A stretch of 64,000 nucleotides of DNA from Dehalococcoidia bacterium (GTDB lineage Bacteria > Chloroflexota > Dehalococcoidia > UBA2979): assembly GCA_009692705.1 (NCBI GenBank), contig SHYR01000003.1, positions 5,170 to 69,169 on the forward strand, read 5' to 3'. Below the pieces are notes generated by a model. That model saw only the letters and a program-made list of their open reading frames with translations. It made no database searches and had not been told where the DNA came from. This document shows positions 29,864 to 50,126 of this stretch, one piece after another. Numbering within the stretch: the first letter of the stretch is position 1; each line of letters starts with the position of its first letter. The position numbers and the translations under genes are program-made.

Positions 29864-29936
29864 GCTAGCGCGCCGCGCGCCTAGCGGCGGCCGGCGCGCG
29901 GACGCAGCACGCACCGGGGCGCTGCGCGCGGCCTAG

Positions 29937-31502: not shown

Positions 31503-31572
31503 CGCTTCCCCCTCCCTGCCCCGTCCACTCCCTGACCCGGCCCACCCGTCTTGCCCGTCTGGCCCATCGACG

Positions 31573-32640: not shown

Positions 32641-32706
32641 CGCCGGATCAGCTTCCTCGCGGGCGGGGAGCGCGCGGGCGGGCGCCGCGCCGGGCACGGC
32701 GACGCC

Positions 32707-34164
32707 TCAGCGCGCCGGCCTCAGCGCGACCAGCGGCAGGTCGTGACGGTCACGGCGCGGGCTCGCCTCGAGCACGAGTTTGTCGAGCTCCAGTGGCACC
32801 TCGCTGGGGTAGCGGCCGGAGAAGCATGCGGTGCACAGCGCGCCGTCGGTGGAGCGCGTGGCCCCGATCGTGCCCTCCAGCGAGAGGTAGCCGAGCGAGT
32901 CGGCGCCGACGTGCCGGCGGATCTCCTCCACGCTCTGGTTGGCGGCGATCAGCTCGCCGCGCGTCGCCATGTCGACGCCGTAGAAGCAGGGGTGCATGAT
33001 CGGCGGCGAGGTGATGCGCATGTGCACCTCGCTCGCGCCGGCGCGGCGCAGCATCGCCACCACGCGCGGCGTGGTAGTGCCGCGCACGATCGAGTCGTCC
33101 ACCACCACCAGCCGCTTGCCCTCCAGCACCTCCCGCAGCGGGTTGAACTTCAACTGCACGCCCTGCTCGCGCAGGCGCTGATCGTGCTGGATGAAGGTGC
33201 GCCCGACGTAGCGGTTCTTCATCAGCCCCTCCCCGTAGGGGATGCCGGACTCCGCCGCGTAGCCGAGCGCCGCCGCCGTCGCCGAGTCCGGCACGCCGAT
33301 CACGAGGTCGGCCTCCACCGGGTGCTCGCGCGCCAGCCGCGCGCCCATGCGCATGCGCACCGGGTGCAGCAGCTCGCCATCGAGGCGCGAATCGGGCCGC
33401 GCGAAGTAAATGTACTCCAGCAGGCACAGCGCCCGCCGCGGCCGGTTCGCTTCGCCCAGCGGGAAGCTCGTGTGCAGGCCGCTGGCGTCCAGCCGCACCA
33501 GCTCGCCGGGTTCGACCTCGCGCAGTAACTCCGCGCCCAGGTGATCCAGCGCGCAGCTCTCGGACGCGATCACGTAGCCGCCGTTGAGCCGGCCGATGCA
33601 CAGCGGGCGGATGCCGTTGGGGTCGCGCACGCCGTACACCGCGTCCGCCGTCAGCACCGTGAGCGAGTAGGCGCCGTTGGCCCGCCGCATCATCACACGG
33701 AAGCGACCTTCCCAGTCCACACCGGTGGCGGTGGCGAGCAGTTGCGCGATCACCTCGGTATCGCTGCTGCGCGTGAACTCCACGCCCTGCTCGACGAGGT
33801 CGGCGCGCAGCATCTCGGCGTTCACGATGTTGCCGTTGTGTGCCACGGCGACCGGGCCCGCCGGCCCCTGCACGAGGATCGGCTGGGCGTTGCCCACCAC
33901 GCTTGACCCGGTGGTGGAGTAGCGGGTGTGGCCGATGGCAGCGATCCCGGGCAGCCCCTCCAGCACGTCCTCGCGGAAGATCTGCGTCACCAGGCCCATG
34001 TCGGCGTAGATGTGCAGCCGCTGGCCGTCACTGGTCGCGATCCCGGCGGATTCCTGACCGCGGTGCTGGAGCGAGAAGAGGCCGAAGAAGGTGACGCGGG
34101 CTACGTCTTCACCCGGCGCGTAGACGCCGAAGACGCCGCATTTCTCGCGCAGGCTCGGGATCAA
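32707..34164 (-). CDS. purF: Amidophosphoribosyltransferase
   Basis: TTG start. An 8-residue propeptide precedes the catalytic Cys (MIPSLREK-CGVFGV). LQHRGQESAGI, and PRT motif LVVVDDSIVRGTT. Confidence 0.95.
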   Translation of the reverse strand: MIPSLREKCGVFGVYAPGEDVARVTFFGLFSLQHRGQESAGIATSDGQRLHIYADMGLVTQIFREDVLEGLPGIAAIGHTRYSTTGSSVVGNAQPILVQGPAGPVAVAHNGNIVNAEMLRADLVEQGVEFTRSSDTEVIAQLLATATGVDWEGRFRVMMRRANGAYSLTVLTADAVYGVRDPNGIRPLCIGRLNGGYVIASESCALDHLGAELLREVEPGELVRLDASGLHTSFPLGEANRPRRALCLLEYIYFARPDSRLDGELLHPVRMRMGARLAREHPVEADLVIGVPDSATAAALGYAAESGIPYGEGLMKNRYVGRTFIQHDQRLREQGVQLKFNPLREVLEGKRLVVVDDSIVRGTTTPRVVAMLRRAGASEVHMRITSPPIMHPCFYGVDMATRGELIAANQSVEEIRRHVGADSLGYLSLEGTIGATRSTDGALCTACFSGRYPSEVPLELDKLVLEASPRRDRHDLPLVALRPAR

Positions 34165-35768: not shown

Positions 35769-36293
35769 CTACCACCAGCCCGGCCCCGCCAGCAGCGCCA
35801 CGCCCGCCCGCTCGTCCCCCGGCAGCGCGTCGAGCAGCGCGCGCACGCTGCGCTCGAGCACCGGGTGCATGAGCGCCGGTGCGATCTCCGCCAGCGGCGC
35901 CAGCACGAACGCGCGCTCGTGCAGCCGCGGGTGCGGCACCGCGAGGTCCGGCGCCGCCACCAGCTCGCCCTCGATCAGCAGCACGTCGATGTCCAGCGGG
36001 CGCGCGCTGTTGCGCGACGCGGCGAAGTCGCGCCCAGCCGCCAGCTCGATGCGCTTGCACAGCGCCAACAGCTCGTGCGCGGTGAGCGCACAGCGGCCCG
36101 CGACCGCGCTGTTGGCGTAGCGCGGCTGCGCCTCGCCGCCCGCCGCGCCCCACGGCGGCGTGTCATAGAGCGAGGACACCGCGCCCACCGTCACGCCCCC
36201 GGCCGCCAGCGCCTCAAGCCCCCGCCGCAGGCTCGCGACGCGGTCGCCGAGGTTCGCGCCGAGCGCGAGCCAAACCGCGCGCTGCTCGCTCAC
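35769..36293 (-). CDS. folK: 2-amino-4-hydroxy-6-hydroxymethyldihydropteridine pyrophosphokinase
   Basis: GTG at 36293 overlaps the folP stop (GTGA). [20 protein letters not shown] and [19 protein letters not shown]. Confidence 0.85.
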
Positions 36294-37144
36294 GGCGGCG
36301 GCCAGCCCCGCACCACCGCGTCGGCCATGCGCGCCACCTCCGCCATCTCGCGCACGTCGTGCACGCGCACGATGTCCGCGCCCCCCTGCACCGCCAGCGC
36401 CACCGTCGCCGCCGTGCCCCACGCGCGCTCCCCCTCCGCCCGCCAGAGCACCGCGCCGATCGCCGACTTACGCGAGCTGCCGACCAGCAGCGGGCGCCCG
36501 AGCGCGCGCAGCTCGCCGAGGCGTCGCAGCAGCTCGAGGTTCTGCGCCACCTCCCAGCCGAAGCCGAAGCCCGGGTCGAGCAGCAGCCGCGAGCGCTCGA
36601 CGCCCGCGCGCTCCGCGAGCTCCAGGCTGGCCTCCAGGCCCGCACGCGCGTCGGCGATCGCGTCGCCACTGGAGACGCGGCCGCGCTGGTTGTGCATCAA
36701 CACCGCCGGGCAGCCCGCGCGCGCCAGCAGCAGCGCCATCGCCGCGTCGCCGCGCAGCCCGTGGATGTCGTTGATCGCGTCGGCCCCGGCCTCCAGCGCC
36801 CGGCGCGCCACCTCCGCCTTCGCGGTATCGACGCTCACCGGCACCAGCACCGCCGCGCGCACGGCGCGCAGCACCGGCGCCAGCCGCCCCCACTCCTCCG
36901 CGGCGTCCACCGCCGGCGCGCCGGGCCGCGAGGACTCCGCACCGATGTCGATCAGCGCAGCGCCATCCGCGACCATTTGCGCCGCCTGCTCCGCCGCGCG
37001 CGCGGGGTCCAGCGCGCCGTCGCCGGAGAACGAGTCCGGGGTCGCGTTCACGATCCCCATGACGTAGGTGCGTGTGCCCCAGTGAAACTCGTGCCCGCCG
37101 ATGCGCATCGGCGCGGGGTGCGCGAAGGCGGGCCCGCCGCTCAT
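36290..37144 (-). CDS. folP: Dihydropteroate synthase
   Basis: [40 protein letters not shown] and INDIHGL. Confidence 0.9.
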
Positions 37145-37157: not shown

Positions 37158-37589
37158 TCATGCCAGCTCCAGCGGCTCTTCCTCGATCGTGCCGCCGCGC
37201 CGGATCAGGAAGGCGCGCACCGCCGGCGGCTCCGCCGCCAGCGAGACAATGATGTAGCAGGTCTGCGGGTACATCGGCTCCTGCTCGACCGCGCCCGGCG
37301 GCCAGAAGGCCATGCGCACATCCGTGGGCGAGGGCCTCGCCTCCGAAGCGACGTGCGAGTGGTAGATCGCGAACAGCGTCTCGCCGGTGCGGTCGCGCTG
37401 CTGCTCGAGTTGCAGCATGCGGCGCGGGTCCATCTCGTAGCGATACGGGCTGGCTGCAGCGTTGGTCACGCGGTACACCGCCGCCGCCGCGCCGCCGACC
37501 GCGTGGATCATGCCGCAGGCCTCGTTGGGGAGATCCGCGCGCGCGTGCGCGATCACCTCGTCCACGAAGGCGCGGGGGATGCGCGGCAT
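37158..37589 (-). CDS. JAMM/MPN+ metalloprotease (Mec/CysO-hydrolase type)
   Basis: NEACG (the catalytic Glu region) and the JAMM motif HSHVASEARPSPTD. 143 aa, single domain. Confidence 0.85.
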   Translation of the reverse strand: MPRIPRAFVDEVIAHARADLPNEACGMIHAVGGAAAAVYRVTNAAASPYRYEMDPRRMLQLEQQRDRTGETLFAIYHSHVASEARPSPTDVRMAFWPPGAVEQEPMYPQTCYIIVSLAAEPPAVRAFLIRRGGTIEEEPLELA

Positions 37590-37595
37590 GTGGCC

Positions 37596-38042
37596 TCAGA
37601 GCTCCCACGCCTGCGTCTCGCCGTCGTCGATGCACGCCCCCGCCGCCTGCCACATCTGCAGGAAGGCGGCGCTGAACGGCTCGGCCGCGAGGTGCTCGAT
37701 CCAGTGCGGCCACTCCTGCTCCGGCAGGCGCGCCACGAACTCCGCAAACGGCAGGTGCACCGTCCCGTCCGGCGCGATCCCGAGATCCAGCGACCAGCGC
37801 CCCGCCAGCGCCACCCGCCCCACGGTGCGCGTGCGTTGCATCTGCGCGCCGCGTTCGCGGTAGCGTCGCAGCACCGCGACCCGGAACCGCAGCTGCAGCC
37901 GCCCCGGCTCGCGTGCGGCGAGCGCGCCCGCCAGCAGCGTGCGCTGCTGCGCCGCCGCCGGCGCGATCTCGGACGGCTCGGCTAGACCGGTCACGCGCCT
38001 GGCTGCCCTGCTACCGCCCGCTGCCGGCTGCGACGGCGGCAC
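37596..38042 (-). CDS. Hypothetical protein (about 148 aa) between rhodanese and JAMM protease
   Basis: GC3-rich minus-strand ORF. The stop lies 6 nt before the JAMM start and the start is uncertain. No motif recognised (Trp-rich C-terminus EQEWPHWIEHL...FLQMWQAAGACIDDGETQAWEL). Confidence 0.5.
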   Translation of the reverse strand: MPPSQPAAGGSRAARRVTGLAEPSEIAPAAAQQRTLLAGALAAREPGRLQLRFRVAVLRRYRERGAQMQRTRTVGRVALAGRWSLDLGIAPDGTVHLPFAEFVARLPEQEWPHWIEHLAAEPFSAAFLQMWQAAGACIDDGETQAWEL

Positions 38043-38054
38043 CTGGCGGATCGC

Positions 38055-38879
38055 TTACTTCTCGATCGGGACATCGACCAGCGAACCGTACTCGGTCCAC
38101 GAGCCATCGTAGTTCCGGACATCCTTGAACCCCAGCAGGTGCCGCAGCACAAACCAGGTGTGCGAGGAGCGTTCGCCGATGCGGCAGTAGGCGATCACGG
38201 GCTCGCCGTCCTTGAGGCCCGCGGCGCCGTACAGCGCCCTCAGCTCCGCGGGCGACTTGAACGTGCCGTCCTCGTTCACGGCGCGCGCCCACGGCACACT
38301 CAGCGCGCGCGGGATGTGCCCGCCGCGCTGCGCCGTCTCGCTCATGCCAGGCGGGGCGATCACCTCGCCGCTGAACTCGGCCGGGCTCCGCACGTCGACC
38401 AGCTGCACGCCGCCTTGCGCAACCACCTTCAGCACATCGTCGCGGCGCGCGCGCACCGCCCGGTCGGCATCCTTGGCCCGGTAGCTGGTGCGCCGCGGGT
38501 GGGATTCCTCCTTCGTCACCGGACGACCGTCGGCAAGCCACTTCGCCCGTCCGCCGTCCATCAGCGAGGCCTGCGCGTGTCCGTACAACTCGAGCACCCA
38601 CAGCGCGTAGGCGGCGAACCAGTTGCTGTTGTCGCCGTAGAGCACGACGTGGGTATCGCTGGCGACCCCGGAGGCGCTTGCCAGCTCCTCCAGCGCCTGC
38701 TTCGTCATGACATCGCGCCGCACCGGATCCTGCAGCTGGGTACTCCAGTTCCAACCGGCCGCGCCCCGGATGTGCCCCTCGGCGTAGGCCGCGGTGTCCA
38801 CGTCCACCTCCACGAGGCGCACGTTGGCGTCGTTGCCGTGCTCGGCCACCCACTGGCAGGTCACAAGCTTCTCCACCAT
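38055..38879 (-). CDS. Two-domain rhodanese sulfurtransferase (thiosulfate/3-mercaptopyruvate type)
   Basis: Start at MVEKLVTCQWV with GGGAGGG upstream. HIRGAAGWNW in domain 1 and the active-site loop YCRIGERSSHTWF in domain 2. Confidence 0.85.
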   Translation of the reverse strand: MVEKLVTCQWVAEHGNDANVRLVEVDVDTAAYAEGHIRGAAGWNWSTQLQDPVRRDVMTKQALEELASASGVASDTHVVLYGDNSNWFAAYALWVLELYGHAQASLMDGGRAKWLADGRPVTKEESHPRRTSYRAKDADRAVRARRDDVLKVVAQGGVQLVDVRSPAEFSGEVIAPPGMSETAQRGGHIPRALSVPWARAVNEDGTFKSPAELRALYGAAGLKDGEPVIAYCRIGERSSHTWFVLRHLLGFKDVRNYDGSWTEYGSLVDVPIEK

Positions 38880-39249
38880 CACCCTCCCCTGGGGCCCCTG
38901 CCCGGCGCTCAGCGCGCGCCGCACCGCCTGGCAAGCGCCTGCGGACGTTCGGCGCCCCGTCGATGATCGGATGTGCGGCTGCGACACGCCGCCGCCTGAA
39001 GGTACCACCGGAAAGTTTCACTTGCTCGCGTGCTATGCGACACCTGCGGCCAGCCAATCATCGGCGACGGCTTCGAGCTGCCATTGCTGCCCGGCACGCT
39101 GGTGGCGGATCGGGGCTCCTCCTTCCGCCGCCCCATCTCGGTCACCGCGAGCGTGATCTCCGTCGTCCTCTGCGTGGCCTGTGGCGGGCGCCTGATCGCC
39201 ATCCTGCATCACAAGCTACAAGCCCTGCCCCGCCTGCGAGGTGGCCCCG

Positions 39250-39284
39250 GCAGGGAGCCGCCGCGCAGCGCGGCGGCTCCCTGC
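39250..39284. terminator. Perfect 16-bp-stem GC hairpin between the convergent cysM and a small plus-strand ORF (possible bidirectional terminator)
   Basis: gcagggagccgccgcg-cag-cgcggcggctccctgc. There is no U-tract, as is common in GC-rich genomes. Confidence 0.4.
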
Positions 39285-39350
39285 GCCATCAGCGCAAGGG
39301 CGAGCAGGCCGCCTGACACGCGCGCCTGCGCGCCGGCCCGCCGCGCGCGG

Positions 39351-40286
39351 CTACCACCAGAGCTTCGCGCTCACGGCCTCTGCGATCTCGTCGTAGTCGC
39401 GGGTCCACAGCCCAGTCGACAGGTACTTCCAGCCACCGTCCGCCAGCAGGCACACGATTTGCCCCTGCTCCATGCGCTCCGCGACCTTCTGTGCCGCTCG
39501 CACCACGGCCCCGCTCGAGATGCCAGCGAAGATGCCGGTGCGGCGCGCCAGCTCCTTGGTGGCGCGGAACGAGCTGGCGGAGTCCACGACGATGCGCCCG
39601 TCCAGCACCGACTCATCGAACACCGGCGGGATGTAGCCCTCTTCCAGGCTGCGCAGTCCCTGCACGAGGTCACCGGGGTGCGGTGCGGCGGCCACGATGC
39701 GCACGCCGGGGCGGTACTGCTTCAGCCGCCGCCCGACGCCGGTGAGCGTGCCGCCGGTGCCCAGGCCCGCCACGAAGACGTCGATCTCAGGCACGTCCGC
39801 GATGATCTCGGGCGCGGTGGTCTCGTAGTGCGCGCGCGGATTCTGCTCGTTCTCATACTGAAACGGCATGAACCAGTCAGGGTGCTCCGCGTGAAGGCGC
39901 TGCGCCATCGCCACCGCGCCGTTGGTGCCCAGCTCGCCGGGCGAGTAGATGATCTCCGCACCGAAGGCGCGCAGCAGCTCCGAGCGCTCGGCGCTCACGG
40001 CGTCTGGCATCACCACCGTCACCGGGTAGCCGCGCAGCTGACCGATCAGCGCCAGCGAGATGCCGGTGTTGCCGGAGGTCGGCTCCAGGATGCGCTGCCC
40101 GGGCCGCAGCCGGCCGCTACGCTCCCCCTCCGCGATCATGAACTTGGCAATGCGGTCCTTCACCGAGCCGGTGGGGTTCTGCCCCTCGAGCTTCGCGAAC
40201 AGCCGCACCGCGGGCTTCGGCGAGAGCACGGAGATCTCCACCACCGGCGTGTTGCCCACCAGGTCCAGCAGGCTCGCGTAGCGCAT
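39351..40286 (-). CDS. cysM: CysM-type cysteine synthase (candidate CysO-thiocarboxylate-dependent O-phosphoserine sulfhydrylase)
   Basis: NPTGSVKDRIA (PLP-Lys), EPTSGNTGISLA and GLGTGGTLTG. It lies immediately downstream of a GG-terminated sulfur carrier. Confidence 0.85.
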   Translation of the reverse strand: MRYASLLDLVGNTPVVEISVLSPKPAVRLFAKLEGQNPTGSVKDRIAKFMIAEGERSGRLRPGQRILEPTSGNTGISLALIGQLRGYPVTVVMPDAVSAERSELLRAFGAEIIYSPGELGTNGAVAMAQRLHAEHPDWFMPFQYENEQNPRAHYETTAPEIIADVPEIDVFVAGLGTGGTLTGVGRRLKQYRPGVRIVAAAPHPGDLVQGLRSLEEGYIPPVFDESVLDGRIVVDSASSFRATKELARRTGIFAGISSGAVVRAAQKVAERMEQGQIVCLLADGGWKYLSTGLWTRDYDEIAEAVSAKLWW

Positions 40287-40303
40287 CGCCCCGCCCGGCG
40301 GCG

Positions 40304-40579
40304 CTAGCCGCCGGCCAGCGCGGGGAGGATGGAGACGGCGTCGCCGTCCTTGAGCGCCGTGCCGCGGCCGCCCAGGTAGCGGATGTCCTCGTCGTTAAGG
40401 TAGATGTTCACGAAGCGGTGCAGCTCGCCGGCTTCGTCTTCCAGCTGGCGGCGAAACCCCGGATAGCGGCGATCGATGTTCGCGATCAGCTCGGCGATCG
40501 TGCGGCCCTCCGCCTCGAACGACTTCTGGCCGTTGACGGCCTTCTGGATCACCGACGTGACGTGTACCTGCACCGGCAA
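40304..40579 (-). CDS. cysO: MoaD/ThiS-family sulfur-carrier protein ending in Gly-Gly (CysO-like)
   Basis: 91 aa. ...RFVNIYLNDEDIRYLGGRGTALKDGDAVSILPALAGG-stop. Confidence 0.85.
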   Translation of the reverse strand: MPVQVHVTSVIQKAVNGQKSFEAEGRTIAELIANIDRRYPGFRRQLEDEAGELHRFVNIYLNDEDIRYLGGRGTALKDGDAVSILPALAGG

Positions 40580-40649
40580 CTGGGCACCTTTCCGTTGCTG
40601 CTCGCGGCGATGGCGCGATGCGCCCGCCGCACCGCCCGGCCACGACGGC

Positions 40650-41783
40650 TCAGTGGCGAGCGGCGATCGCGGCGGCCTCTTCCGCCAGCGGCGGCGTGCC
40701 GCAGAACTGGTCGTAGTCGATCAACTCGGTAACCGTCGGGTGCTCGCCGCACAGCGGGCAGCGCGGATCACGCCGCAGCTTCATCGTGCGGAACTCCATC
40801 GTCAGCGCGTCGACCAGCAGTAGCCGCCCGACCAGCGACTGGCCGATGCCGAGGATCTGCTTGAACACCTCGGTTGCCTGGATCGAGCCCACAATGCCGG
40901 TGATCGAGCCCAGCACGCCCGCTTCCGCGCACGACGGCACCAGTCCCGGCGGTGGCGGCGATGGGTAGAGGCAGCGGTAGCAGCCGCCGCCCGGCTTAAA
41001 GACCGTGGCCTGGCCGTCGAACAGCAGGATCGACCCGTCCACCAGCGTTTTGCCCAGCAGGTAGCAGGCGTCGTTCACCAGGTAGCGGGTGGCGAAGTTG
41101 TCGGCGCCGTTCACCACGATGTCGTAATCGCGGATAATCTCCATCGCGTTATCGGAGGTCAGCGGGGCGCCGTGCGGACGCACCGTGACATGCGGGTTGT
41201 AGGCCGCCAGCTTCTCCTGCGCCGAGAGCAGCTTCGACTTGCCGATGTCCGGCGTCTGGTGCAGCAGTTGCCGCTGCAGGTTCGAGAGCTCGACGATGTC
41301 GAACTCCGCGATCCCCACCGTGCCGACGCCCGCCAGCGCCAGGTAGATCGCCACCGGCGAGCCGAGCCCGCCCGCGCCCACCACCAGCACCTTCGCGTTG
41401 CGCAGCTTGCGCTGCCCGCTCGGGCCCACCGGCCCCATGATGATGTGCCGCGAGTAGCGCATCACCTCGTCCGGCGTCATCGCCACCGAGGCGGCGCCGC
41501 CGTCCGCTGCGCCGCCCGCCAGCGCCGGGATGACCGCGATCTGGTCCCCGTCTGCCAGCGCCGTCTCGACCCCCTCCAGCTCGTGGATCTCGCGGTTGTT
41601 GACGTAGATGCTGATGTGCTGCGGCACCCGCCGCGCACCGTCGTAGACCAGCATCTCGAAGCCGGGGTAGCGCGCGGTCAGCGCCTCCAGCACCTCGGCC
41701 ACGCTGCCACCCTCCACGCTCACGTAGTCGTGATCGTGGGTCAGCCGCCGCCACGGCGAGGGGATGTACACGCTCACGGTCAT
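40650..41783 (-). CDS. Fusion of an N-terminal MoaD/ThiS-like beta-grasp domain (internal ...IPALAGG) to a ThiF/MoeB/MoeZ-type E1 adenylyltransferase
   Basis: Residues 1-91 parallel CysO (ISIYVNNREIHELEGVETALADGDQIAVIPALAGG). The linker is AADGGAASVA. The E1 core has RYSRHI, VLVVGAGGLGSP, CYRCLYP...SCAEAGVLG...CPLCG. There is no C-terminal rhodanese domain. Confidence 0.85.
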   Translation of the reverse strand: MTVSVYIPSPWRRLTHDHDYVSVEGGSVAEVLEALTARYPGFEMLVYDGARRVPQHISIYVNNREIHELEGVETALADGDQIAVIPALAGGAADGGAASVAMTPDEVMRYSRHIIMGPVGPSGQRKLRNAKVLVVGAGGLGSPVAIYLALAGVGTVGIAEFDIVELSNLQRQLLHQTPDIGKSKLLSAQEKLAAYNPHVTVRPHGAPLTSDNAMEIIRDYDIVVNGADNFATRYLVNDACYLLGKTLVDGSILLFDGQATVFKPGGGCYRCLYPSPPPPGLVPSCAEAGVLGSITGIVGSIQATEVFKQILGIGQSLVGRLLLVDALTMEFRTMKLRRDPRCPLCGEHPTVTELIDYDQFCGTPPLAEEAAAIAARH

Positions 41784-41841
41784 CGGCGCCGTTCTCTTTC
41801 CGTTGCTCGTCCCACCGCTCCGGCCGCGCCCGCTGCCAGCG

Positions 41842-42789
41842 TCACAGCGGCACGCTCAAGTAGCGCTCGCCGGTGTCGCAGAGCATCGTCACCACGCGCT
41901 TGCCCGCCCCGAGCTGGCGCGCGACCTGGAGCGAGGCCCAGACGTTGGCTCCCGAGGAGATGCCGACCAGCAGCCCCTCCTCGCGCGCCAGCCGCTTCGT
42001 CATCGCGAACGCGTCCTCGTCCCGCACCGCCATCACCTCGTCGTAGATCGCGGTGTTGAGCACGCTTGGCACGAACGACGCGCCGATGCCCTGGATGCCG
42101 TGCACGCCGGCGCGGCCGCCCTGCAGCACCGGCGCCCGCGCCGGTTCCACCGCCACCACGCGCGCGTGCACCCCGGCGTCGCGCAGCACCTCGCCGACGC
42201 CGGTGATCGTGCCGCCGGTGCCGACGCCGGCCACGAAGGCGTCCAGCTGCCCGCCGGTGGCCTCCAGGATCTCGGGGCCGGTGGTGCGTCGGTGGATCTC
42301 CGGGTTCGCCTGGTTGTCGAACTGCTGCGGCATGAAGTAGCCATGGCGCTCCTGCAGCTCCCGCGCCGCGTACACCGCGCCGGTCATGCCCTCGATCGCC
42401 GGCGTGAGCACCAGCTCGGCGCCCAGCCGCTCCAGCAGCCGCCGTCGCTCCACGCTCATGTCCTCCGGCATCGTCAGCACCAGCCGGTAGCCCTTGCGCG
42501 CGCATACCACCGCCAGCCCGACCCCGGTGTTGCCGGACGTGGGCTCCACCAGCGTGTCGCCGTGGTGGATGCGGCCTTCACGCTCCGCCGCCTCCACCAT
42601 GCTCAGCGCGATGCGATCCTTCACCGAGCCGCCGGGGTTGCGCGCCTCCACCTTGCCCAGGATCTCCGCCACGCCCTCCGGCGCGATGCGCGCCAGCCGC
42701 ACGAGCGGGGTCGCGCCGATCAGCTCCAGCACGGAGCCGGCGATCAGGGGTTGGCCGCGCAGGGTGGCAGGCATCGGCGCCTCCGCCAT
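41842..42789 (-). CDS. cysK: O-acetylserine sulfhydrylase (cysteine synthase A)
   Basis: NPGGSVKDRIALSM, EPTSGNTGVGLA, GVGTGGTITG, GIQGIGA and SSGAN. Confidence 0.9.
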   Translation of the reverse strand: MAEAPMPATLRGQPLIAGSVLELIGATPLVRLARIAPEGVAEILGKVEARNPGGSVKDRIALSMVEAAEREGRIHHGDTLVEPTSGNTGVGLAVVCARKGYRLVLTMPEDMSVERRRLLERLGAELVLTPAIEGMTGAVYAARELQERHGYFMPQQFDNQANPEIHRRTTGPEILEATGGQLDAFVAGVGTGGTITGVGEVLRDAGVHARVVAVEPARAPVLQGGRAGVHGIQGIGASFVPSVLNTAIYDEVMAVRDEDAFAMTKRLAREEGLLVGISSGANVWASLQVARQLGAGKRVVTMLCDTGERYLSVPL

Positions 42790-42796
42790 CGTGATC

Positions 42797-43258
42797 TCAG
42801 ATCTTGTAGTGGGGCGCGGCGGCCATCACCCGCTCGGCCCGCTCGCGCTCGCGCTCGCGCTCCGTGAGGTCGGCCAGCGAGATCGCGGCCAAGCGCCGGC
42901 GCATCTCGTCGAAGATCTCGCGCCACACCCACTGCTGCCCGCAGAGCGGGTCGTGCGCGTCGTCCGCTGGGTCGTCGGAGAGGCAGCCCAGCGGCGCCAG
43001 CGAGCCCTCGAGGCTCTCCAGCACGTGCAGCAGGCAGATCTCGGCGGGTGGCCTCGCCAGCTCGTGCCCGCCGCCCGGGCCCCGCGTGCTGCGGATGAAC
43101 CCGTCTCGCCGCAGCTGTGCCAGCAGGTGGTCCAGGTACGACTCCGGAATCTGCCGCCGGTGCGCGATGTCGGCCCGCTGCACCGGGCCTTCGCCCTCGT
43201 GCAGGGCGAGCTCGATCAGCGCGCGCACACCATAGTCCCCCTTGGTGCTGATTTTCAC
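42797..43258 (-). CDS. Rrf2-family transcriptional regulator (CymR/IscR-like)
   Basis: MKISTKGDYGVRALIELAL..., IPESYLDHLLAQLRRDGFIRSTRGPGGG. It is the first gene of the cysK operon. A TACAAT -10-like hexamer lies at 43309-43314 (minus strand). Confidence 0.85.
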   Translation of the reverse strand: MKISTKGDYGVRALIELALHEGEGPVQRADIAHRRQIPESYLDHLLAQLRRDGFIRSTRGPGGGHELARPPAEICLLHVLESLEGSLAPLGCLSDDPADDAHDPLCGQQWVWREIFDEMRRRLAAISLADLTERERERERAERVMAAAPHYKI

Positions 43259-43431
43259 GTCCGCGTCTCAAGCCTGTCCGGCGCTGTACCAGAGATTGTC
43301 GAGCGATTTAGTCAGCATTGTAGCACGAGCGGCGGAAGGCCCCACGCGCTCACCCGGCCGCCGCCCGCCGAGGCGTAACATGGCGAGCCATCAACCGGGC
43401 CCGGAATGCCCTACGCGAACGAGGATCGAGG

Positions 43432-43629
43432 ATGGCAAGGCACCGGATCGAGATCGAGCTTCCGGCGACGATCTTGCACAAGGACGCGCGGTTCACGGTC
43501 TACTCCGATGGCGCGAAGCTGGGTGAACTCCACGTCAGCCAGGGCACGATCGACTGGAAACCGGTAAGCCGCCAGCGGCCGATCAGGCACACCTGGGAGC
43601 GGTTCGCTAGGCTGATGGAATCCCGGTAG
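43432..43629 (+). CDS. Small hypothetical protein (65 aa) in a lower-GC patch
   Basis: MARHRIEIELPATILHKDARFTVYSDGAKLGELHVSQGTIDWKPVSRQRPIRHTWERFARLMESR. GAGGA precedes the ATG. No family recognised. Confidence 0.45.
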   Translation: MARHRIEIELPATILHKDARFTVYSDGAKLGELHVSQGTIDWKPVSRQRPIRHTWERFARLMESR

Positions 43630-43680
43630 CGCCGGATGGTCCGGCCTAAACGCGTGCGTGGCCCGGCGCGCCGCGCACCG

Positions 43681-43956
43681 CTACCCGCCCGCGACCGCCG
43701 GCACGATCGATACCTCGTCACCTTCGCCGAGCGCGGTCGCCAGCCCCTGCAGGAAGCGCACGTCCTCGCCGTTGACGTAGACGTTGACGAAGCGGCGCAG
43801 CTCCCCGGACGCCTCGCACAGCCGCTCGCGCATCCCCGGGTAGCTGCGCTCCAGCTCGCTCACGAGCTCAGCGATCGAGCCGCTCCCCGCCGCGACCGTC
43901 TCGAGGCCGCTGGTGAGTGTGCGCAGGGGGGTCGGGATCTTGACGGTGACGGCCAT
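43681..43956 (-). CDS. Second free-standing MoaD/ThiS-family sulfur carrier ending in Gly-Gly (MetO/HcyS-like by context)
   Basis: 91 aa. ...RFVNVYVNGEDVRFLQGLATALGEGDEVSIVPAVAGG-stop. It is a paralogue of the carrier at 40304-40579. Confidence 0.8.
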   Translation of the reverse strand: MAVTVKIPTPLRTLTSGLETVAAGSGSIAELVSELERSYPGMRERLCEASGELRRFVNVYVNGEDVRFLQGLATALGEGDEVSIVPAVAGG

Positions 43957-44040
43957 CGCTTGCCCCTGAATACCTGTCTGCTCCGGCTGCTGCGGCTGGC
44001 CTGCTGCGGGCTGCCGGGCCCGCCCCGCGGGCGCGCCATG

Positions 44041-44286
44041 CTATCGGTCGACGATGTCACCGAGCGTGGGGTCGTCGACGCGCACGCCGAGCTCGCGCGC
44101 CCACGCGAGGGCGCGCTCGATCTCGTCGCGCTCGCCCTCCAGCTCCAGCACCACCCAGCCCACGTGCTCGTCCACGTCCGCCATGCGGATGTTAGTCACG
44201 ATCTGGAACTTGTGCCCGAGCTGGTAGATCACCGGCTCCAGGATCAGCCCCGGCTCGAACGTCATGCGCACGCGCTTGCTCACCAT
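44041..44286 (-). CDS. NIL-domain protein (stand-alone)
   Basis: 81 aa. VRMTFEPGLILEPVIYQLGHKFQIVTNIRMADVDEHVGWVVLELEGERDEIERALAWARELGVRV. The fold and motif match the C-terminal domain of MetN. Confidence 0.75.
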   Translation of the reverse strand: MVSKRVRMTFEPGLILEPVIYQLGHKFQIVTNIRMADVDEHVGWVVLELEGERDEIERALAWARELGVRVDDPTLGDIVDR

Positions 44287-44288
44287 CG

Positions 44289-45536
44289 CTACGCTCCCGT
44301 CGTCACGGCCAGGCGCGCGGCCAGCGTGGCCTCGAAGGCGCGCGCGTTCGCCGGCACCCGCAGCGGCGCCTCCAGCCGGTCCACCACCGCCTCCACGGTC
44401 TTCAAGCCGGCGCCGGTAATGAAGGCCACGGTCTCCTCGTCGCGCCGGATGTGGCCGCTCTTCACCATGCGCTTCAGGCAGGCGATCGTCACCCCGCCGG
44501 CGGTCTCCGCGAAGATGCCCTCGGTCTCCGCCAGCAGCTTCACGCCCTCGATGATCTCATCATCGCTCGCCATCTCCGCGCCGCCGTTGGTCTCCTGCAT
44601 CGTCTTCAGCGCATAGTAGCCGTCCGCCGGGTTCCCGATCGCGAGCGAGCGCGCGATCGTGTTCGGCTTCTGCGGCACGAAGTTGAACGTGCCGGCCGCG
44701 TAGGCGGTGGTGATCGGCGAGCAGCCGCTCGCCTGCGCGCCCGACATGCGCGTGTGCGGCTCTTCGATCAGACCGATGCGCGCGAACTCCTTGAAGCCCT
44801 TCCATATCTTGGTGTAGAGCGAGCCCGACGCCATCGGCACCACCACGTGATCCGGCGCGCGCCAGCCGAGCTGTTCGGCGACCTCGAAGGCCAGCGTGCG
44901 CGATCCCTCGGCGTAGTAGGGACGGACGTTGATGTTCACGAACGCCCACTGGCGCGAGCCGGAGAGCTCCGTGCAGAGGCGATTCACGTCGTCGTAGGAG
45001 CCCTCCACCATCACCAGCGTGGGGCGGTAGATCGCGCTGCCCACGACCTTGCCCTGCTCGAGGTCCTGCGGGATGAAGACGTAGGCCTGCATGCCGGCGT
45101 GCGCGGCGTGCGCGGCGACGGCGTTCGCGAGGTTGCCGGTGCTCGCGCAGGCCAGCGCCTCGAAGCCGAACTGGCGAGCGCGCGCGATCGCCACCGCCAC
45201 CACGCGATCCTTGAACGACCACGTGGGGTTCACGGTGTCGTTCTTCAGCCACAGCCGCTCCAGCCCCAGCCGCGCGCCGAGGCGCTCGGCGCGGATCAGG
45301 GGCGTGAACCCGGTCCCGAGATCGACCTTGTACGCAGGATCGCAGGGCAGCAGCTCGGCGTAGCGCCACAGCGTCTTCGGACCGGCGGCGATGTGCTCAC
45401 GCGAGGTCGCGCGCGCGATCGCGTCGTAGTCGTAATCGACCTCCAGCGGGCCGAAGCAGAACTCGCACGAGAAGATCGGCGTCAGCGAGTACTCGCGGCC
45501 GCATTCGCGGCAGCGCAGGGCCCTCTCGTAGGACAT
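44289..45536 (-). CDS. Threonine-synthase-family PLP enzyme with N-terminal zinc ribbon (second ThrC paralogue; candidate sulfur-carrier-dependent homocysteine synthase)
   Basis: Start at MSYERALRCRECGREYSLTPIFSCEFCFGPLEV. PLP-Lys NPTWSFKDRV and ASTGNLANAVAAHAA. It is translationally close-packed with the NIL and ThiS-like genes. Confidence 0.85.
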   Translation of the reverse strand: MSYERALRCRECGREYSLTPIFSCEFCFGPLEVDYDYDAIARATSREHIAAGPKTLWRYAELLPCDPAYKVDLGTGFTPLIRAERLGARLGLERLWLKNDTVNPTWSFKDRVVAVAIARARQFGFEALACASTGNLANAVAAHAAHAGMQAYVFIPQDLEQGKVVGSAIYRPTLVMVEGSYDDVNRLCTELSGSRQWAFVNINVRPYYAEGSRTLAFEVAEQLGWRAPDHVVVPMASGSLYTKIWKGFKEFARIGLIEEPHTRMSGAQASGCSPITTAYAAGTFNFVPQKPNTIARSLAIGNPADGYYALKTMQETNGGAEMASDDEIIEGVKLLAETEGIFAETAGGVTIACLKRMVKSGHIRRDEETVAFITGAGLKTVEAVVDRLEAPLRVPANARAFEATLAARLAVTTGA

Positions 45537-45779
45537 CGGATCACACTCTCTCTGCGCGGGATGGGATGGCGCCGGGGATGCCCGCGCCCACGGCCGCACG
45601 CAGCGGCCGCGACCGGGCTAGCGCATCGCCATGCGGTCCAAGCGGTGGCGTCGTGCGATCACCGCTGTCGCCCTTCGTTCATCGCTGCCGGGCACCGCAA
45701 CCACGCCGCCGCCGGTGCGGAACCGCACCGCCCGCCCCGATGCATTCGAGGCTAGGAGCGCGCCCGCGCTGCTGTCAAC

Positions 45780-46052
45780 TCAACTGCGCGCGACCGCCGC
45801 CGCCAGCGCGCGCCGCAACGCAGCGAGGTCGAGCGGGGCGACCGCCAGCTCGCGGCCCTCCACCGCCACCACGGGCACGCGCTCGCCGAAGCGGCGCTCC
45901 AGCTCCGCATCGCCCTCCACGTTCACCTCGCGCAGCTCGAAGGCCAGCGCCGGGCGCAGCGCGCGCAGCGCCTCACCCGCCTGCTCGCAGAGGTGGCAGC
46001 CGGGACGCCAGTAGAGTGTGACGGTGGAGCCCGCGGGCCTGCGCTCAGCCAC
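45780..46052 (-). CDS. Glutaredoxin-like small thiol-disulfide protein (CxxC)
   Basis: VTLYWRPGCHLCEQAGEAL...RVPVVAVEGRE. The GTG start overlaps the lgt stop. Confidence 0.7.
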   Translation of the reverse strand: MAERRPAGSTVTLYWRPGCHLCEQAGEALRALRPALAFELREVNVEGDAELERRFGERVPVVAVEGRELAVAPLDLAALRRALAAAVARS

Positions 46053-46938
46053 GGCGGCGGCGCTCCGCGCGCGTGCCCCGCCGCACCGGGATGCGCCCCG
46101 GCGGCGCGCCGGGCGCATCCGCCAGCGGCGGCCGCGTGGCGAAGTACCAGGCGCCGGGGATCAGCGCGACGAGCACCAGCAGCGAGACCAACTGCGGCAC
46201 GCGTAGCCCCAGCACCTCCGAAGAATCGACGCGCAGATACGTGAGGAAGAAGCGCATCACGGCGTAGCCGCCGAGGTAGAAGCAGAAGGTGAGGCCGGGG
46301 CGCCGCCGCAGTGGCCCGAAGAACAGCCAGAACATCACGCCGAGGATTACGAGGTCGCCGAGCAGCTCGTAGGTGGTGGCCGGGTGGTGCGGGCCCACCG
46401 TCACCGAGTACGCGAAGGCCGGGGACTGCGGGTCGGTGTAGATCACGCCCCACGGCAAGTTCGTGGCGCGCGCGAGATGCTCGCCGTTGACCAGGTCGCC
46501 GATGCGTCCGATCGCCTGCCCGAGGATCAGCCCGAAACCGCCGGCGTCCAGCCCGCGCGCGATCGGGTAGCGGCGCCAGAGCGCAAACGCCAGCCCGCCG
46601 CCCACGCCGCCGAGGATCGCTCCCCAGATCGAAATGCCGCCCTCGGTGAGGACCACGATATCGAACGGGTTGCGGCTGTAGAAGTCCCAGCGCTCGATCA
46701 CGTACAGCAGCCGCGCCCCGACCACCCCACTCGGCACCGCCACCAGCGCGAGCGCGTAGGCGTCATCGTCGTCGTAGCCGCCGGCGCGCGCGATGCGGCG
46801 GCCGAGCTGCACCCCGGCGAGGATGCCGATCGCGGTGAAGAGGCCGTGCCACGTCAGCAGGAAGCCGCCGATGCCGGCGATGTTGGGGTCCCACGGGATC
46901 TCGATCACCAGCATCAGGCCCGGCACGGCGGCCTCCAC
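46045..46938 (-). CDS. lgt: Prolipoprotein diacylglyceryl transferase
   Basis: LTWHGLFTAIGILAG, GARLLYV, GGISIWGAILGG, GRIGDLVNGEH and WGV. Confidence 0.9.
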   Translation of the reverse strand: MEAAVPGLMLVIEIPWDPNIAGIGGFLLTWHGLFTAIGILAGVQLGRRIARAGGYDDDDAYALALVAVPSGVVGARLLYVIERWDFYSRNPFDIVVLTEGGISIWGAILGGVGGGLAFALWRRYPIARGLDAGGFGLILGQAIGRIGDLVNGEHLARATNLPWGVIYTDPQSPAFAYSVTVGPHHPATTYELLGDLVILGVMFWLFFGPLRRRPGLTFCFYLGGYAVMRFFLTYLRVDSSEVLGLRVPQLVSLLVLVALIPGAWYFATRPPLADAPGAPPGRIPVRRGTRAERRRRG

Positions 46939-47859: not shown

Positions 47860-48648
47860 TCACCACCGCACCGCCGCGCGCGCCCGCCCGCGCTGCCGCG
47901 CGACCGCCGCCGCTGCGCGGTGCGCGCGCTCGGCGTACGGGTCATCGAGCGCGAGCAGCTCGGCCCCACCATCGCCATAGCGGTGACGCAGCGCCGCGCG
48001 CAGCAGGTGGTCGGTGAGCGCGGGGTTCTTCGGCAGCACCGAGCCGTGCAGGTAGGTGCCAATCGCGGCGCCGGCGAGCGCGCCCTCGGCGCCGTCGTCG
48101 CCGTTGTTGCCGTAGCCGTACAGCACCTGCGCGAACGGCCGCGCGCGCGGGCCGAGGTAGGTGCGGCCCCCGTGGTTCTCAAAGCCCACGACCTCGCCCA
48201 CGCCCTCGATCTCCGCACGCGCCAGCACGTCGCCGATGCAGCGCTGCCAGCCAGGGCCCGGCGCCACCGTGACCGCATCGAAGATGCCGACGCCGGGCAG
48301 CTCGTCGCCGGCCGCGGTGCGGTAGGAACGGCCGAAGAGCTGGAAGCCGCCGCACACCGCCAGCATCGCCGCGCCCTGCTCCGCCCACTCGCGCAGCAGC
48401 GCGCCGCGACCGGCCAGCTCGCCGGCAATGCGCCGCTGCTCGCGGTCCTGCCCGCCGCCGATCAGCACTAGGTCGGCCTCCGCCGGCAGCCGGTCGCCGA
48501 TGCCGATCGCGGTGACCTGGCACCCGATGCCCGACCGCAGGCAGCGCGCCACCAGCGCGATCATGTTGCCGCGGTCGGCGTACACGCCCATGACGTCGGG
48601 GTAGAGCGAGACCACCCGGATCGCGAGGCCGGCGCGCGCGACGGTCAC
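47860..48648 (-). CDS. gatD: CobQ-like glutamine amidotransferase GatD (lipid II isoglutaminyl synthase, glutaminase subunit)
   Basis: LIGGGQDREQ, catalytic AVCGGFQLFG, and GFENHGGRT...GTYLHG. The start overlaps the murT stop (GTGA). Confidence 0.8.
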   Translation of the reverse strand: MTVARAGLAIRVVSLYPDVMGVYADRGNMIALVARCLRSGIGCQVTAIGIGDRLPAEADLVLIGGGQDREQRRIAGELAGRGALLREWAEQGAAMLAVCGGFQLFGRSYRTAAGDELPGVGIFDAVTVAPGPGWQRCIGDVLARAEIEGVGEVVGFENHGGRTYLGPRARPFAQVLYGYGNNGDDGAEGALAGAAIGTYLHGSVLPKNPALTDHLLRAALRHRYGDGGAELLALDDPYAERAHRAAAAVARQRGRARAAVRW

Positions 48649-50126
48649 GACGCCGCCCCCCAGTAAGGCGCCACGCCGGTGCGGTTCGCCAGCGCCTCGC
48701 GCAGCTCCACCATCGCGGTGTAGGTCGCGAGCACGTCCAGCCGCGCCCCCGGCGGCGTGAGCTCGATCGCGCGCTCCAGCGCGGAGGCGAGATGCGGCTC
48801 CACCAGCGCCGGCTCCAGGCCGGCGAGCACCAGCCGCAGCGCCAGCTCATCGGCGCGCGTGCCGGAGACCACGATCGTGGCTGCACGCCCCTGCAGCAGC
48901 TCCAGGTCGGCATCGTAGATCCAGGACACGTCGCGACCGTCCGCCACGCCGTCATTCAGGACCGCGAGCAGGTGCAGCACGGGGCCGGGCGGAGCCGGCG
49001 TCACCAGCGTGCGCAACAGCTCGTTCATGCCCGCCGGGTTCTTCGCCAGCAGCAGCCGCACATCGCGGTCGTAGACACGGAAGCGCTCCTGCCGCCCGAA
49101 GGCGGGCCCTGCCCCCTCGAGCGCGTGCGCGATCGCTGTCACCGGCAGCCCCAGCGCGTGCGCGCCGGCCGCGGCGGCGAGCGCATTGTAGACGGAGTGC
49201 AGCCCCGCCAGCGGTAGCGCCACCGCCAGCGTCTCGCCCGGCAGCGCCAGCTCGAAACGCACGCCGTCTGCAAGCAGCTCGACGGCGCGCGCGCTCACCG
49301 CCGGCGTCTCCCGCCGGCGGCCGCAAGCGTCGCAGCGCCAGTGACCAAGGTGGCCGATGAACACCGCGTCGTACGCATAGAGTGCGCCGCAGTCGCAGAA
49401 CCGCGCGTCGGCGGCGTGCTCCACACCCGCCAGCGCCACGTCGCAGTCCTCGACGCCGAAGGTCACGACCTCGCCGCCCGCCGCCCCGGCGAGCCGCGCA
49501 ATCGACGGGTCGTCGGCGTTCAGCACCAGCGTGAGGCCGGAAGCGTCACCTTCCAGCGCGCCCCACCAGCCCTCGGCGAGCGAGTCCACCTCACCGTAGC
49601 GGTCGAGCTGGTCACGGAAGAGGTTGAGGAAGAGCGCCGCGCGCGGCCGCAGCCGCGGCAGCACGCCCGGCAGCGCCGCCTCGTCGACCTCGAACACACC
49701 GAGGCGCCGGAACGCCACCGGCAGGCGCCCCCCGGCGGTCATCGCCGCCACGAAGGCGCTCACGATCCCGCGCTCCAGGTTGGAGCCGGAGTGGTTGGCG
49801 AGCGGCTGCAGCCCGGCGGCACGCGCCGCCGCGCTCAACAGATGCGCGGTGGTGGTCTTGCCGTTGGTGCCGGTGACGGTAACACTGCCGTGACCCGGCA
49901 GCCGCCCGAGCTCTTCCAGCAGCGCCGGCGCGAGCGCCGTCGCCACCAGCCCCGGCAGCGCGGTGCCGCCGCCGCGACGCAGCCAGCGGGTGGCGGCGCC
50001 GGCGCCGCGAGCCAGCAGCAACGCACCGCGCTCCCGCAGGCTTCCCGCCAACCCGGACGCGCCTGAGCCGTCGCCGATCATGGCAACCATTGTCCTACGG
50101 TCTGCCTCCGGCCGCGCGGGGCGCAT
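48645..50126 (-). CDS. murT: Mur-ligase-family MurT (lipid II isoglutaminyl synthase)
   Basis: VTVTGTNGKTTT, a Cys4 ribbon (FCDCG...WRCDACG) and a C-terminal DUF1727-like region. The start may be the downstream Met (MVAMIGDG, about 50090). Confidence 0.85.
   Translation of the reverse strand: MRPARPEADRRTMVAMIGDGSGASGLAGSLRERGALLLARGAGAATRWLRRGGGTALPGLVATALAPALLEELGRLPGHGSVTVTGTNGKTTTAHLLSAAARAAGLQPLANHSGSNLERGIVSAFVAAMTAGGRLPVAFRRLGVFEVDEAALPGVLPRLRPRAALFLNLFRDQLDRYGEVDSLAEGWWGALEGDASGLTLVLNADDPSIARLAGAAGGEVVTFGVEDCDVALAGVEHAADARFCDCGALYAYDAVFIGHLGHWRCDACGRRRETPAVSARAVELLADGVRFELALPGETLAVALPLAGLHSVYNALAAAAGAHALGLPVTAIAHALEGAGPAFGRQERFRVYDRDVRLLLAKNPAGMNELLRTLVTPAPPGPVLHLLAVLNDGVADGRDVSWIYDADLELLQGRAATIVVSGTRADELALRLVLAGLEPALVEPHLASALERAIELTPPGARLDVLATYTAMVELREALANRTGVAPYWGAAS

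Follow-up and report, generated by a model that had tools for sequence, protein, structure and literature searches.

A Dehalococcoidia gene cluster that probably combines two known protein-thiocarboxylate pathways with the classical sulfide route to sulfur amino acids

The analysis concerns a gene cluster in a 64,000-nt window of the Dehalococcoidia contig SHYR01000003.1 (G+C content about 72%; all positions follow the numbering of this window, which is the whole stretch analysed). The genes of the cluster, from that of a rhodanese to that of a pyridoxal phosphate (PLP) enzyme resembling threonine synthase (ThrC), all lie on the minus strand according to the list of open reading frames (ORFs) and the Pfam, NCBIfam and PDB searches (Table 1). 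We consider it probable, at roughly three chances in four, that they form a consolidated sulfur-amino-acid cluster bringing together two known protein-thiocarboxylate pathways and the classical sulfide route. The cluster consists of two modules that move independently of each other: module A is metM-NIL-metO, and module B is rrf2-cysK-Ubl~E1-cysO-cysM followed by rhodanese-X-JAMM-folP-folK. Both pathways, together with the Mec/MoeZ machinery common to them, have already been described, and the locus is no new kind of system. As a variant of these systems, the locus is marked by the physical joining of the modules, the split between rhodanese and E1, the NIL partner, the third carrier fused to the E1 and the rhodanese-X pair.

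An earlier interpretation of the same DNA (hereafter the sequence-only reading) had listed these genes and motifs. They were found at their positions on the minus strand, with Pfam, NCBIfam and PDB matches behind each call, and the domain check with hidden Markov models, covering the carrier, E1, JAMM and other calls, supported the domains. Its proposal of two parallel thiocarboxylate routes, one to cysteine and one to homocysteine, is likewise supported as a prediction: the CysM-like protein is closest to Mycobacterium tuberculosis CysM and keeps the equivalent of Arg220, and a ThiS-like gene accompanies the ThrC paralogue at most loci. It had counted two beta-grasp carriers, and three are present, one of them fused to the E1. 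The novelty that it implied did not hold up, as the published MetO pathway already uses the Mec and MoeZ of the CysO pathway, and a multi-carrier E1 and similar operons have also been published.

The ThrC paralogue (MetM) is predicted to be a homocysteine synthase using O-phosphohomoserine and MetO thiocarboxylate. Its true start is the ATG at 45536, which gives a protein of 415 aa identical to the NCBI protein P0001 from a Dehalococcoidia metagenome-assembled genome. It scores 283 bits with the NCBIfam thrC model TIGR00260 (cutoff 167) and 304.9 bits with PRK08197 (cutoff 303). Its N-terminus, about 55 residues long, is a CxxC...CxxC ribbon, and because the solved ThrC structures in the PDB align only from residue 53-58 on, this ribbon is an extra element. 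A canonical ThrC of 357 aa is encoded in the same window (1147-2220, minus strand); it scores 301 bits with TIGR00260 and is 36% identical to MetM. As this canonical enzyme is encoded elsewhere in the window, the role of housekeeping ThrC was ruled out for the 415-aa paralogue. The canonical gene adjoins that of GTP cyclohydrolase I (folE, 447-1169, minus strand).

The locus survey was anchored on the window MetM and comprised 80 loci, one genome per species, searched by tblastn with the window proteins; 75 of them had enough flanking sequence. A ThiS-like gene adjoins MetM in 67 of these 75 loci, which come from Chloroflexota, Nitrospirota, Actinomycetota, Cyanobacteria, Verrucomicrobiota, Nitrospinota and Syntrophaceae. 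In the window, metO lies 330 bp downstream of metM, with the NIL gene in between. The window MetM shares 59-61% identity with cyanobacterial family members and 54% with a Micromonosporaceae member, while a Microcystis homologue is 51.6% identical to MetM of Streptomyces albulus (PMC12172450). The S. albulus pair MetM/MetO (Hasebe et al. 2024) is presented in GapMind 2026 and PMC12172450 as a ThrC-like, O-phosphohomoserine-dependent homocysteine synthase with its carrier. The MetO pathway is listed with a carrier (MetO), a hydrolase (Mec), a ligase (MoeZ) and a homocysteine synthase (MetM) as its steps (GapMind 2026, bioRxiv 10.1101/2024.10.14.618325, appendix 4), and cyanobacterial MetM homologues have a neighbouring metO-like gene (PMC12172450). 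MetM is described as "often misannotated" as threonine synthase (GapMind 2026, bioRxiv 10.1101/2024.10.14.618325); among the listed family members, the window's included, the public annotation is "threonine synthase" wherever a name is given. The metM gene of S. albulus is reported with an S-adenosylmethionine (SAM) riboswitch (PMC12172450). The Rfam search detected neither a SAM riboswitch nor any other RNA element in the whole window at the gathering threshold or in the 35.5-46.2 kb region at E <= 1.

The three beta-grasp carriers MetO, CysO and Ubl3 are paralogues of about 40% identity with the same C-terminal tail. MetO (91 aa) has the ThiS/MoaD fold and reaches 51.5 bits with MoaD_arch and 60.7 bits with SAMP1 (NCBIfam cutoff 60); its tail, SIVPAVAGG, is almost invariant across phyla. 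Some orthologues are extended past the two glycines, with ends such as GGCF (L006), GGR, GGH, GGAA, GGTSCRM, GGAPNPLSL and others. In such copies removal of the extra residues by the JAMM protein would be needed, whereas the window MetO ends exactly at GG and needs no trimming. CysO, also of 91 aa, has the C-terminus ILPALAGG, scores 52.7 bits with MoaD_arch and 45.8 bits with SAMP1 (cutoff 60), and its gene lies 17 bp upstream of cysM. The fusion of ThiS and ThiF domains that holds Ubl3 is found in 119 of the 120 best E1 homologues, and 118 of the 119 fusions carry (I/V)PAxAGG where Ubl meets E1, with a linker of variable length (11-35 aa) after it. Ubl3 is a stand-alone gene in L015, where it ends in GGVR, and in L086. 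The MoaD-MoaE fusion MoaX is active only after cleavage at GG (PMC4326299), and the conserved GG within the Ubl~E1 fusion argues for proteolytic release of the same kind. By this analogy, Ubl3 is most likely freed by the JAMM protein and would then serve as a further carrier. At the Dehalococcoidia locus L008 (10001-11512), MetM-NIL is followed by epoxide-hydrolase-like genes and MetO is absent. The only carriers at L008 are the CysO-like protein and the E1-fused Ubl, both in the upstream cysteine block, so the carriers may be partly interchangeable.

The NIL protein is a stand-alone domain of 81 aa with zero cysteines. Its gene adjoins MetM in 25 of the 75 loci, lying between MetM and MetO in 15 of 22 Chloroflexota loci and directly after MetO in all eight Nitrospirota loci; among 16 loci of Actinomycetota and 24 of Cyanobacteria, none was detected next to MetM. 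In the Syntrophaceae locus L037 (11279-11800), NIL is fused to the C-terminus of MetO right after GG. The nearest structures are the C2 domains of MetN, with weak matches (E 0.016-0.19), and Asn32 of the NIL protein is aligned with N295 of MetN. The MetN C2 domains bind L-methionine for trans-inhibition, and N295 is a methionine contact (PMC6233128). Judged by these matches, the most likely role of NIL is that of a regulatory or adaptor subunit of MetM/MetO which binds a small molecule of the methionine type. A role as persulfide carrier was rejected, since the versions from the window, L009 and L037 all lack cysteine. In the literature searched, no paper ties the NIL domain to a thiocarboxylate pathway. 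DUF39 was not found among the window genes scanned, and NIL has no fused ferredoxin domain.

The CysM-like protein has full-length PDB matches to 3dwg/3dki, the M. tuberculosis CysM deposited as "O-phosphoserine sulfhydrylase" (E 1e-88). The alignment to these structures shows that the equivalent of Arg220 of the M. tuberculosis enzyme is kept (GLRSLEEG vs ALRNMDEG). Arg220 of M. tuberculosis CysM has a role in specificity for O-phosphoserine. By homology, the window protein is predicted to be an O-phosphoserine sulfhydrylase of the type that depends on CysO thiocarboxylate. CysK, on the other hand, passes TIGR01139 and is thus a classical O-acetylserine sulfhydrylase A. The E1 core has E. coli MoeB (1jw9) and ThiF (1zfn) as its closest structures. 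It lacks the C-terminal rhodanese domain of MoeZ: the model NF005902 gives 365 bits (cutoff 647) and is matched at positions 14-284 of 392, the protein ends after the ThiF domain, and the rhodanese is a separate gene. Without this domain, the sulfur must come in trans.

The separate rhodanese, whose active site the sequence-only reading had correctly recognised, consists of 274 aa counted from an ATG behind a GGGGAGGG ribosome-binding site. It matches PDB 3aax/3hwi, deposited as thiosulfate sulfurtransferases, with E 5e-94, and the CRIGERSSHTWF loop is identical. We take these two structures to be mycobacterial CysA-type enzymes. On this similarity, the rhodanese is predicted to supply the E1 with sulfur in trans. 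Its neighbour, protein X, for which 148 aa had been proposed, has 132 aa in the NCBI gene call. X has about 112 homologues, mostly from Dehalococcoidia and 120-135 aa long, and is conserved at the protein level. The invariant motifs are RTxTVGR, WSLDxGI and GACIDDGE, the last of which holds the single invariant cysteine, Cys121. X has no Pfam, NCBIfam or PDB sequence match; its AlphaFold2 model shows a confidently predicted alpha/beta fold (predicted local distance difference test, pLDDT, 84.8), with no Foldseek match in the PDB below E 0.15. In each of the seven contexts examined, X has a two-domain rhodanese as its neighbour, with the two genes in either order, and three of the seven neighbourhoods (L084, L087 and the JGI 3300047160 contig) hold no E1, JAMM or CysM. 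X is a candidate new rhodanese partner and possibly a persulfide acceptor.

The motifs of the JAMM protein are intact, with NEACG and with HSHVASEARPSPTD, which fits HxHx7SxxD. The protein matches PDB 2kks (1.3e-18), and its only NCBIfam match is the desampylase NF041370, with 67 bits against a cutoff of 130. The genes folP and folK follow 3' of the JAMM gene, co-oriented and closely spaced. L008 and L086 have JAB-FolP-FolK in the same order; the synteny of folP/folK is thus kept, yet no role in the sulfur pathway is evident.

The regulator passes the Rrf2 superfamily model (121 bits, cutoff 73) and stays below the models of CymR (95.7 vs 195) and IscR (92.9 vs 207). The rrf2 gene is the first of the cysteine operon and has an AT-rich, TACAAT-type promoter patch upstream that is similar in relatives; no consensus could be established when this patch was compared with them. 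A single Rrf2 regulator over all three operons, as the sequence-only reading had it, was not supported: the search for an operator common to the three upstream regions gave only GC-rich chance matches, and the transcription units are separate. The scan for promoters and terminators found no excess over shuffled controls on the relevant strand. The hairpin reported after the CysM-like gene is indeed present, 67 nt downstream of cysM and with no T-tract, and is likely the terminator of the cysteine operon.

The picture of three adjacent minus-strand operons is right as to the genes, but a coding-like gene on the plus strand (43432-43629) stands between operons 3 and 2. This ORF between metO and rrf2 encodes 65 aa, with G+C of 0.86 at third (GC3) and 0.45 at second codon positions (GC2). 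Its product has no family match and shares 39% identity with hypothetical proteins from two Gordonia plasmids. In the relatives L001-L003 a GNAT acetyltransferase gene occupies its position.

The whole block, including its flanks, keeps its synteny in relatives with only 77% identity in MetM. Such synteny shows only shared ancestry; the conservation of the block in these relatives, together with that of X, is more than chance. Many Dehalococcoidia have MetM-NIL-MetO alone. At L086 the order is Rrf2-CysK-ThiS-ThiF-ThiS-CysM-Rhd-X-(DUF559)-JAB-FolP-FolK, with no MetM within about 5 kb upstream. The cysteine block is located upstream of MetM-NIL in L008 and downstream in L015, where it lacks the rhodanese. 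Among the 49 MetM loci flanked by at least 5 kb on each side, an E1 lies within 10 kb of MetM in only eight (0/12 Actinomycetota, 0/18 Cyanobacteria and 2/13 Chloroflexota).

Outside the Chloroflexota, the combination recurs in other arrangements. The Nitrospirota order is CysK-E1-MetM-MetO-NIL-E1-JAMM, the Nitrospinota order is CysK-MetM-MetO-E1-CysM and that of the Syntrophaceae (L037) is Rrf2-MetM-MetO~NIL-Rhd~E1-Ubl-JAMM-CysM. Two E1 genes flank MetM-MetO-NIL in the Nitrospirota loci L009, L012, L014, L020, L026, L029, L031 and L069; no JAMM gene was detected in L026 and L031, where the available sequence stops shortly past the second E1. L009 has a 78-aa ThiS-like gene upstream of CysK. 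In L037 the E1 (11834-13039) has a rhodanese domain at its N-terminus and is encoded by an ORF broken by a frame change. That MetM-MetO came together with E1, JAMM and cysteine synthases repeatedly and independently is a good argument for their functional coupling. MoeZR is a single E1 that serves several carriers, CysO and MoaD (PMC3227635). Taken together, the recurrent clustering, the place of Mec and MoeZ in both pathways as published and the multi-carrier MoeZR make it likely that one set of activation and hydrolysis enzymes serves both the cysteine and the homocysteine route, and such sharing is not new. The one E1, one JAMM protein and one rhodanese of the sequence-only reading are single copies at the locus, and their combination recurs in other phyla, but most MetM loci have no E1 nearby; their common use here is plausible. 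As to the co-occurrence of the operons in related genomes, block synteny in relatives and recurrent linkage in other phyla stand against the many MetM loci without a nearby E1.

The sequences give gene content, motifs, conservation and linkage, and from these the following chemistry is predicted. The CysA-type rhodanese would accept sulfane sulfur in the form of a cysteine persulfide, with the invariant cysteine of X as a possible relay. Judging from its family, the MoeB/ThiF-type E1 would adenylate the C-terminal Gly-Gly of CysO and MetO, and the persulfide sulfur would turn the acyl-adenylate into the carrier thiocarboxylate, with the rhodanese acting in trans rather than fused as in MoeZ. 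By homology to M. tuberculosis, CysM would then join O-phosphoserine and CysO-COSH into a CysO-cysteine adduct, which the Mec-like JAMM protein would cut into L-cysteine and free CysO. In parallel, by homology to S. albulus MetM/MetO, MetM would convert O-phosphohomoserine with MetO-COSH to homocysteine, while the JAMM protein would handle any C-terminal trimming or adduct release. CysK would form cysteine from O-acetylserine and sulfide, and Rrf2 would govern at least its own operon. A joint reading that goes beyond this is tentative and, in our opinion, rather doubtful: the locus would be a three-carrier sulfur-distribution hub, in which NIL is a methionine-sensing allosteric gate of MetM/MetO replacing the SAM riboswitch reported upstream of metM in S. 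albulus, Ubl3 freed by the JAMM protein feeds a third acceptor, possibly the neighbouring CysK-type enzyme, and X is a persulfide relay for CysA-type rhodaneses.

Several observations weigh against the consolidated cluster. As many as 41 of the 49 MetM loci have no E1 within 10 kb, and the cysteine/rhodanese/JAMM block of L086 has no MetM in the approximately 5 kb upstream, so that the adjacency could be partly historical. No Rrf2 operator common to the operons was found, and the JAMM, rhodanese and X genes share their operon with folate genes. L008 has MetM-NIL without MetO, which means that the pairing of carrier and enzyme is not strict. The membership of the window enzyme in the MetM family is drawn from genomic context and from transitive identity through the Microcystis member, and its metM has no SAM riboswitch, unlike that of S. 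albulus (PMC12172450). Some of these observations also suit the view that the modules are adjacent yet independent, with E1, JAMM and rhodanese serving CysO (and Ubl3) only and MetO activated by an E1 encoded elsewhere. The rarity of E1 near MetM (8/49), the cysteine block without MetM in the flank of L086, the solitary MetM-NIL-MetO of many Dehalococcoidia and the opposite-strand gene that divides the two modules in the window would all fit. We nevertheless hold it to be improbable, as MetM-MetO co-clusters with E1 and JAMM in Nitrospirota, Syntrophaceae and Nitrospinota in varied orders and fusions, E1 enzymes of the MoeZR family are known to serve several carriers (PMC3227635), and the three carriers have about 40% identity and the same C-terminal tail.

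Two other explanations change the function of the proteins themselves. A ubiquitin-like conjugation system of the SAMP/TtuB type, in which the JAMM protein is a deconjugase and sulfur transfer is secondary or absent, would account for the borderline SAMP1 equivalog score of MetO (60.7 vs 60 bits), for the SAMP-activating E1 UbaA as the fourth-ranked match of the E1 (317 bits) and for the desampylase as the only NCBIfam match of the JAMM protein. However, UbaA (317 vs 450) and the desampylase (67 vs 130) fall far short of their cutoffs, SAMP1 for CysO (45.8 vs 60) is below its own, each carrier gene has beside it the gene of a PLP enzyme with characterised homologues that use carrier thiocarboxylates, and the rest of the neighbourhood is purely sulfur-amino-acid metabolism; conjugation is thus very unlikely. 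We give even less credit to the ThrC paralogue being a second threonine synthase or another beta/gamma-replacement enzyme, with NIL and the ThiS-like protein serving molybdenum cofactor, thiamin or tRNA thiolation. It is true that the protein passes the threonine synthase models PRK08197 (304.9 vs 303) and TIGR00260 (283 vs 167), that the public annotations all say "threonine synthase" and that a Microcystis homologue is reported with ThrC and deaminase activities in vitro (PMC12172450). Yet the canonical 357-aa ThrC of the same window has the higher TIGR00260 score (301 bits), a ThiS-like gene adjoins the paralogue in 67/75 loci across phyla, and scans of window genes with Pfam or NCBIfam, which took in every gene of the locus, gave no moaE, thiG or ttuA. 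The annotations themselves are of the kind that GapMind 2026 calls "often misannotated". The consolidated cluster of two thiocarboxylate pathways and a sulfide route therefore remains our preferred reading.

Table 1. Features of the sulfur-amino-acid locus and the adjoining folate genes (window numbering).
Feature	Position	Strand	Evidence
metM (ThrC-like PLP enzyme)	44289-45536	-	PALP 1.7e-69 + N-terminal Zn ribbon
NIL protein	44041-44286	-	PF09383 3.5e-15
metO (ThiS-like carrier)	43681-43956	-	ThiS 2e-17; ends PAVAGG
rrf2 regulator	42797-43258	-	Rrf2 1.2e-35
cysK	41842-42789	-	TIGR01139 434 bits, cutoff 351
ThiS~ThiF fusion (Ubl~E1)	40650-41783	-	ThiS 7e-12 aa 14-91; ThiF 1.4e-78 aa 110-343
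Ubl3, third beta-grasp carrier domain of fusion	41511-41783	-	aa 1-91, ends IPALAGG
E1 core, MoeB/ThiF-type adenylyltransferase	40650-41483	-	ThiF 1.4e-78
cysO-like carrier	40304-40579	-	ThiS 4.8e-15; ends PALAGG
cysM-like	39351-40286	-	best PDB match 3dwg/3dki
hairpin 3' of cysM	39250-39284	-	16-bp perfect stem, -43.2 kcal/mol, z = -3.5
two-domain rhodanese	38055-38879	-	Rhodanese 4.7e-29, two stretches; CRIGERS
protein X, 132 aa	37596-37994	-	NCBI gene call; conserved hypothetical
JAMM/MPN+ zinc hydrolase (Mec-like)	37158-37589	-	Prok-JAB 4.7e-19; HSHVASEARPSPTD
folP	36290-37144	-	Pterin_bind 2.8e-73
folK	35769-36422	-	HPPK 9.4e-33

Between cysM and the rhodanese gene, the plus strand at 39030-39276 encodes a small CxxC...CxxC protein that is 42% identical to the product of a 93-aa gene at the same position in L086 (4762-5043, minus strand). 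Its frame has no stop before 40307 and its C-terminal part is matched in a different one, hinting at a frameshift or pseudogene; the protein was not found in L001-L003 or L008. Directly upstream of metM, a glutaredoxin-like DUF836 gene (45780-46118, minus strand) overlaps the end of lgt, and its position is kept in L001-L003. The DUF836 protein could provide reducing equivalents for acyl-persulfide/disulfide intermediates. Upstream of the locus (47860-50126, minus strand) are a MurT/GatD pair (a Mur ligase with a MurT C-terminal domain and a GATase_3 protein), an M23 peptidase and Lgt, syntenic with L001-L003. Downstream lie purine genes (18280-34164, minus strand), namely purL-like 18280-20886, purH 29937-31739, purM-like 31573-32697 and purF-like 32707-34164, as well as cytochrome b and Rieske genes at about 26.4-28.8 kb. 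The window also holds gyrB (53736-56051, plus strand) and dnaA (58950-60539, minus strand), with a switch in the sign of the GC skew near 58-60 kb and a cumulative minimum at about 58 kb, and probably includes the chromosomal replication origin.

The value of the analysis lies in the correction of a widespread misannotation and in singling out three concrete components: NIL, the fused carrier and X. In public annotation, MetM is labelled "threonine synthase", the E1 "MoeB" and X "hypothetical"; a metabolic reconstruction built on these labels would mistakenly score Chloroflexota, Nitrospirota and other uncultured lineages as auxotrophic for methionine or cysteine.

Compared with known systems, the locus resembles the CysO-CysM-Mec/MoeZ(R) system of M. 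tuberculosis in having a GG-ended carrier beside a CysM with the Arg220 equivalent, a JAMM protein, a MoeB-type E1 and a CysA-type rhodanese, with a classical CysK in the same organism. In contrast to MoeZ of M. tuberculosis, the window E1 has no fused rhodanese and carries a third carrier domain at its N-terminus instead. The rhodanese is a separate two-domain protein paired with X, the JAMM gene is located away from cysO-cysM in a rhodanese-X-JAMM-folPK operon, and the regulator is of the Rrf2 family, all unlike M. tuberculosis. With S. albulus MetM/MetO the locus shares a ThrC-homologous PLP enzyme with a ThiS-like carrier, encoded beside a canonical ThrC and with JAMM and E1 available. It differs from that system in the 81-aa NIL between metM and metO, the lack of a SAM riboswitch, the physical joining to the cysteine module and a MetO that ends exactly at GG.

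In the HcyS/HcyF/HcyD/MetY system of Wolinella succinogenes, as cited in PMC5764234, a carrier, an E1 and a JAMM protein likewise feed a PLP homocysteine synthase. While MetY is an O-acetylhomoserine sulfhydrylase, the window enzyme is a fold-type II ThrC paralogue with a predicted phospho-ester substrate. The DUF39 + NIL/ferredoxin pathway of methanogens and Desulfovibrio (PMC5764234) is similar in that a NIL domain is tied genetically to homocysteine formation. The window NIL has neither a ferredoxin domain nor cysteine, and it has no DUF39 partner. That route starts from aspartate semialdehyde, whereas MetM would start from O-phosphohomoserine. JAB/E1/ThiS/cysteine-synthase operons, one of them in Chloroflexus, and Ubl-ThiF fusions were catalogued in 2006 by Iyer, Burroughs and Aravind (PMC1779556). 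As in those fusions, a beta-grasp domain lies N-terminal to the adenylating domain, with stand-alone carriers alongside. The 2006 examples come mainly from thiamin operons of epsilon/delta-proteobacteria and Firmicutes, whereas here the fusion is the standard E1 of the Chloroflexota cysteine cluster (119/120 close homologues). As in MoaX (PMC4326299), the GG is kept at the fusion junction, where cleavage of Ubl~E1 is a prediction.

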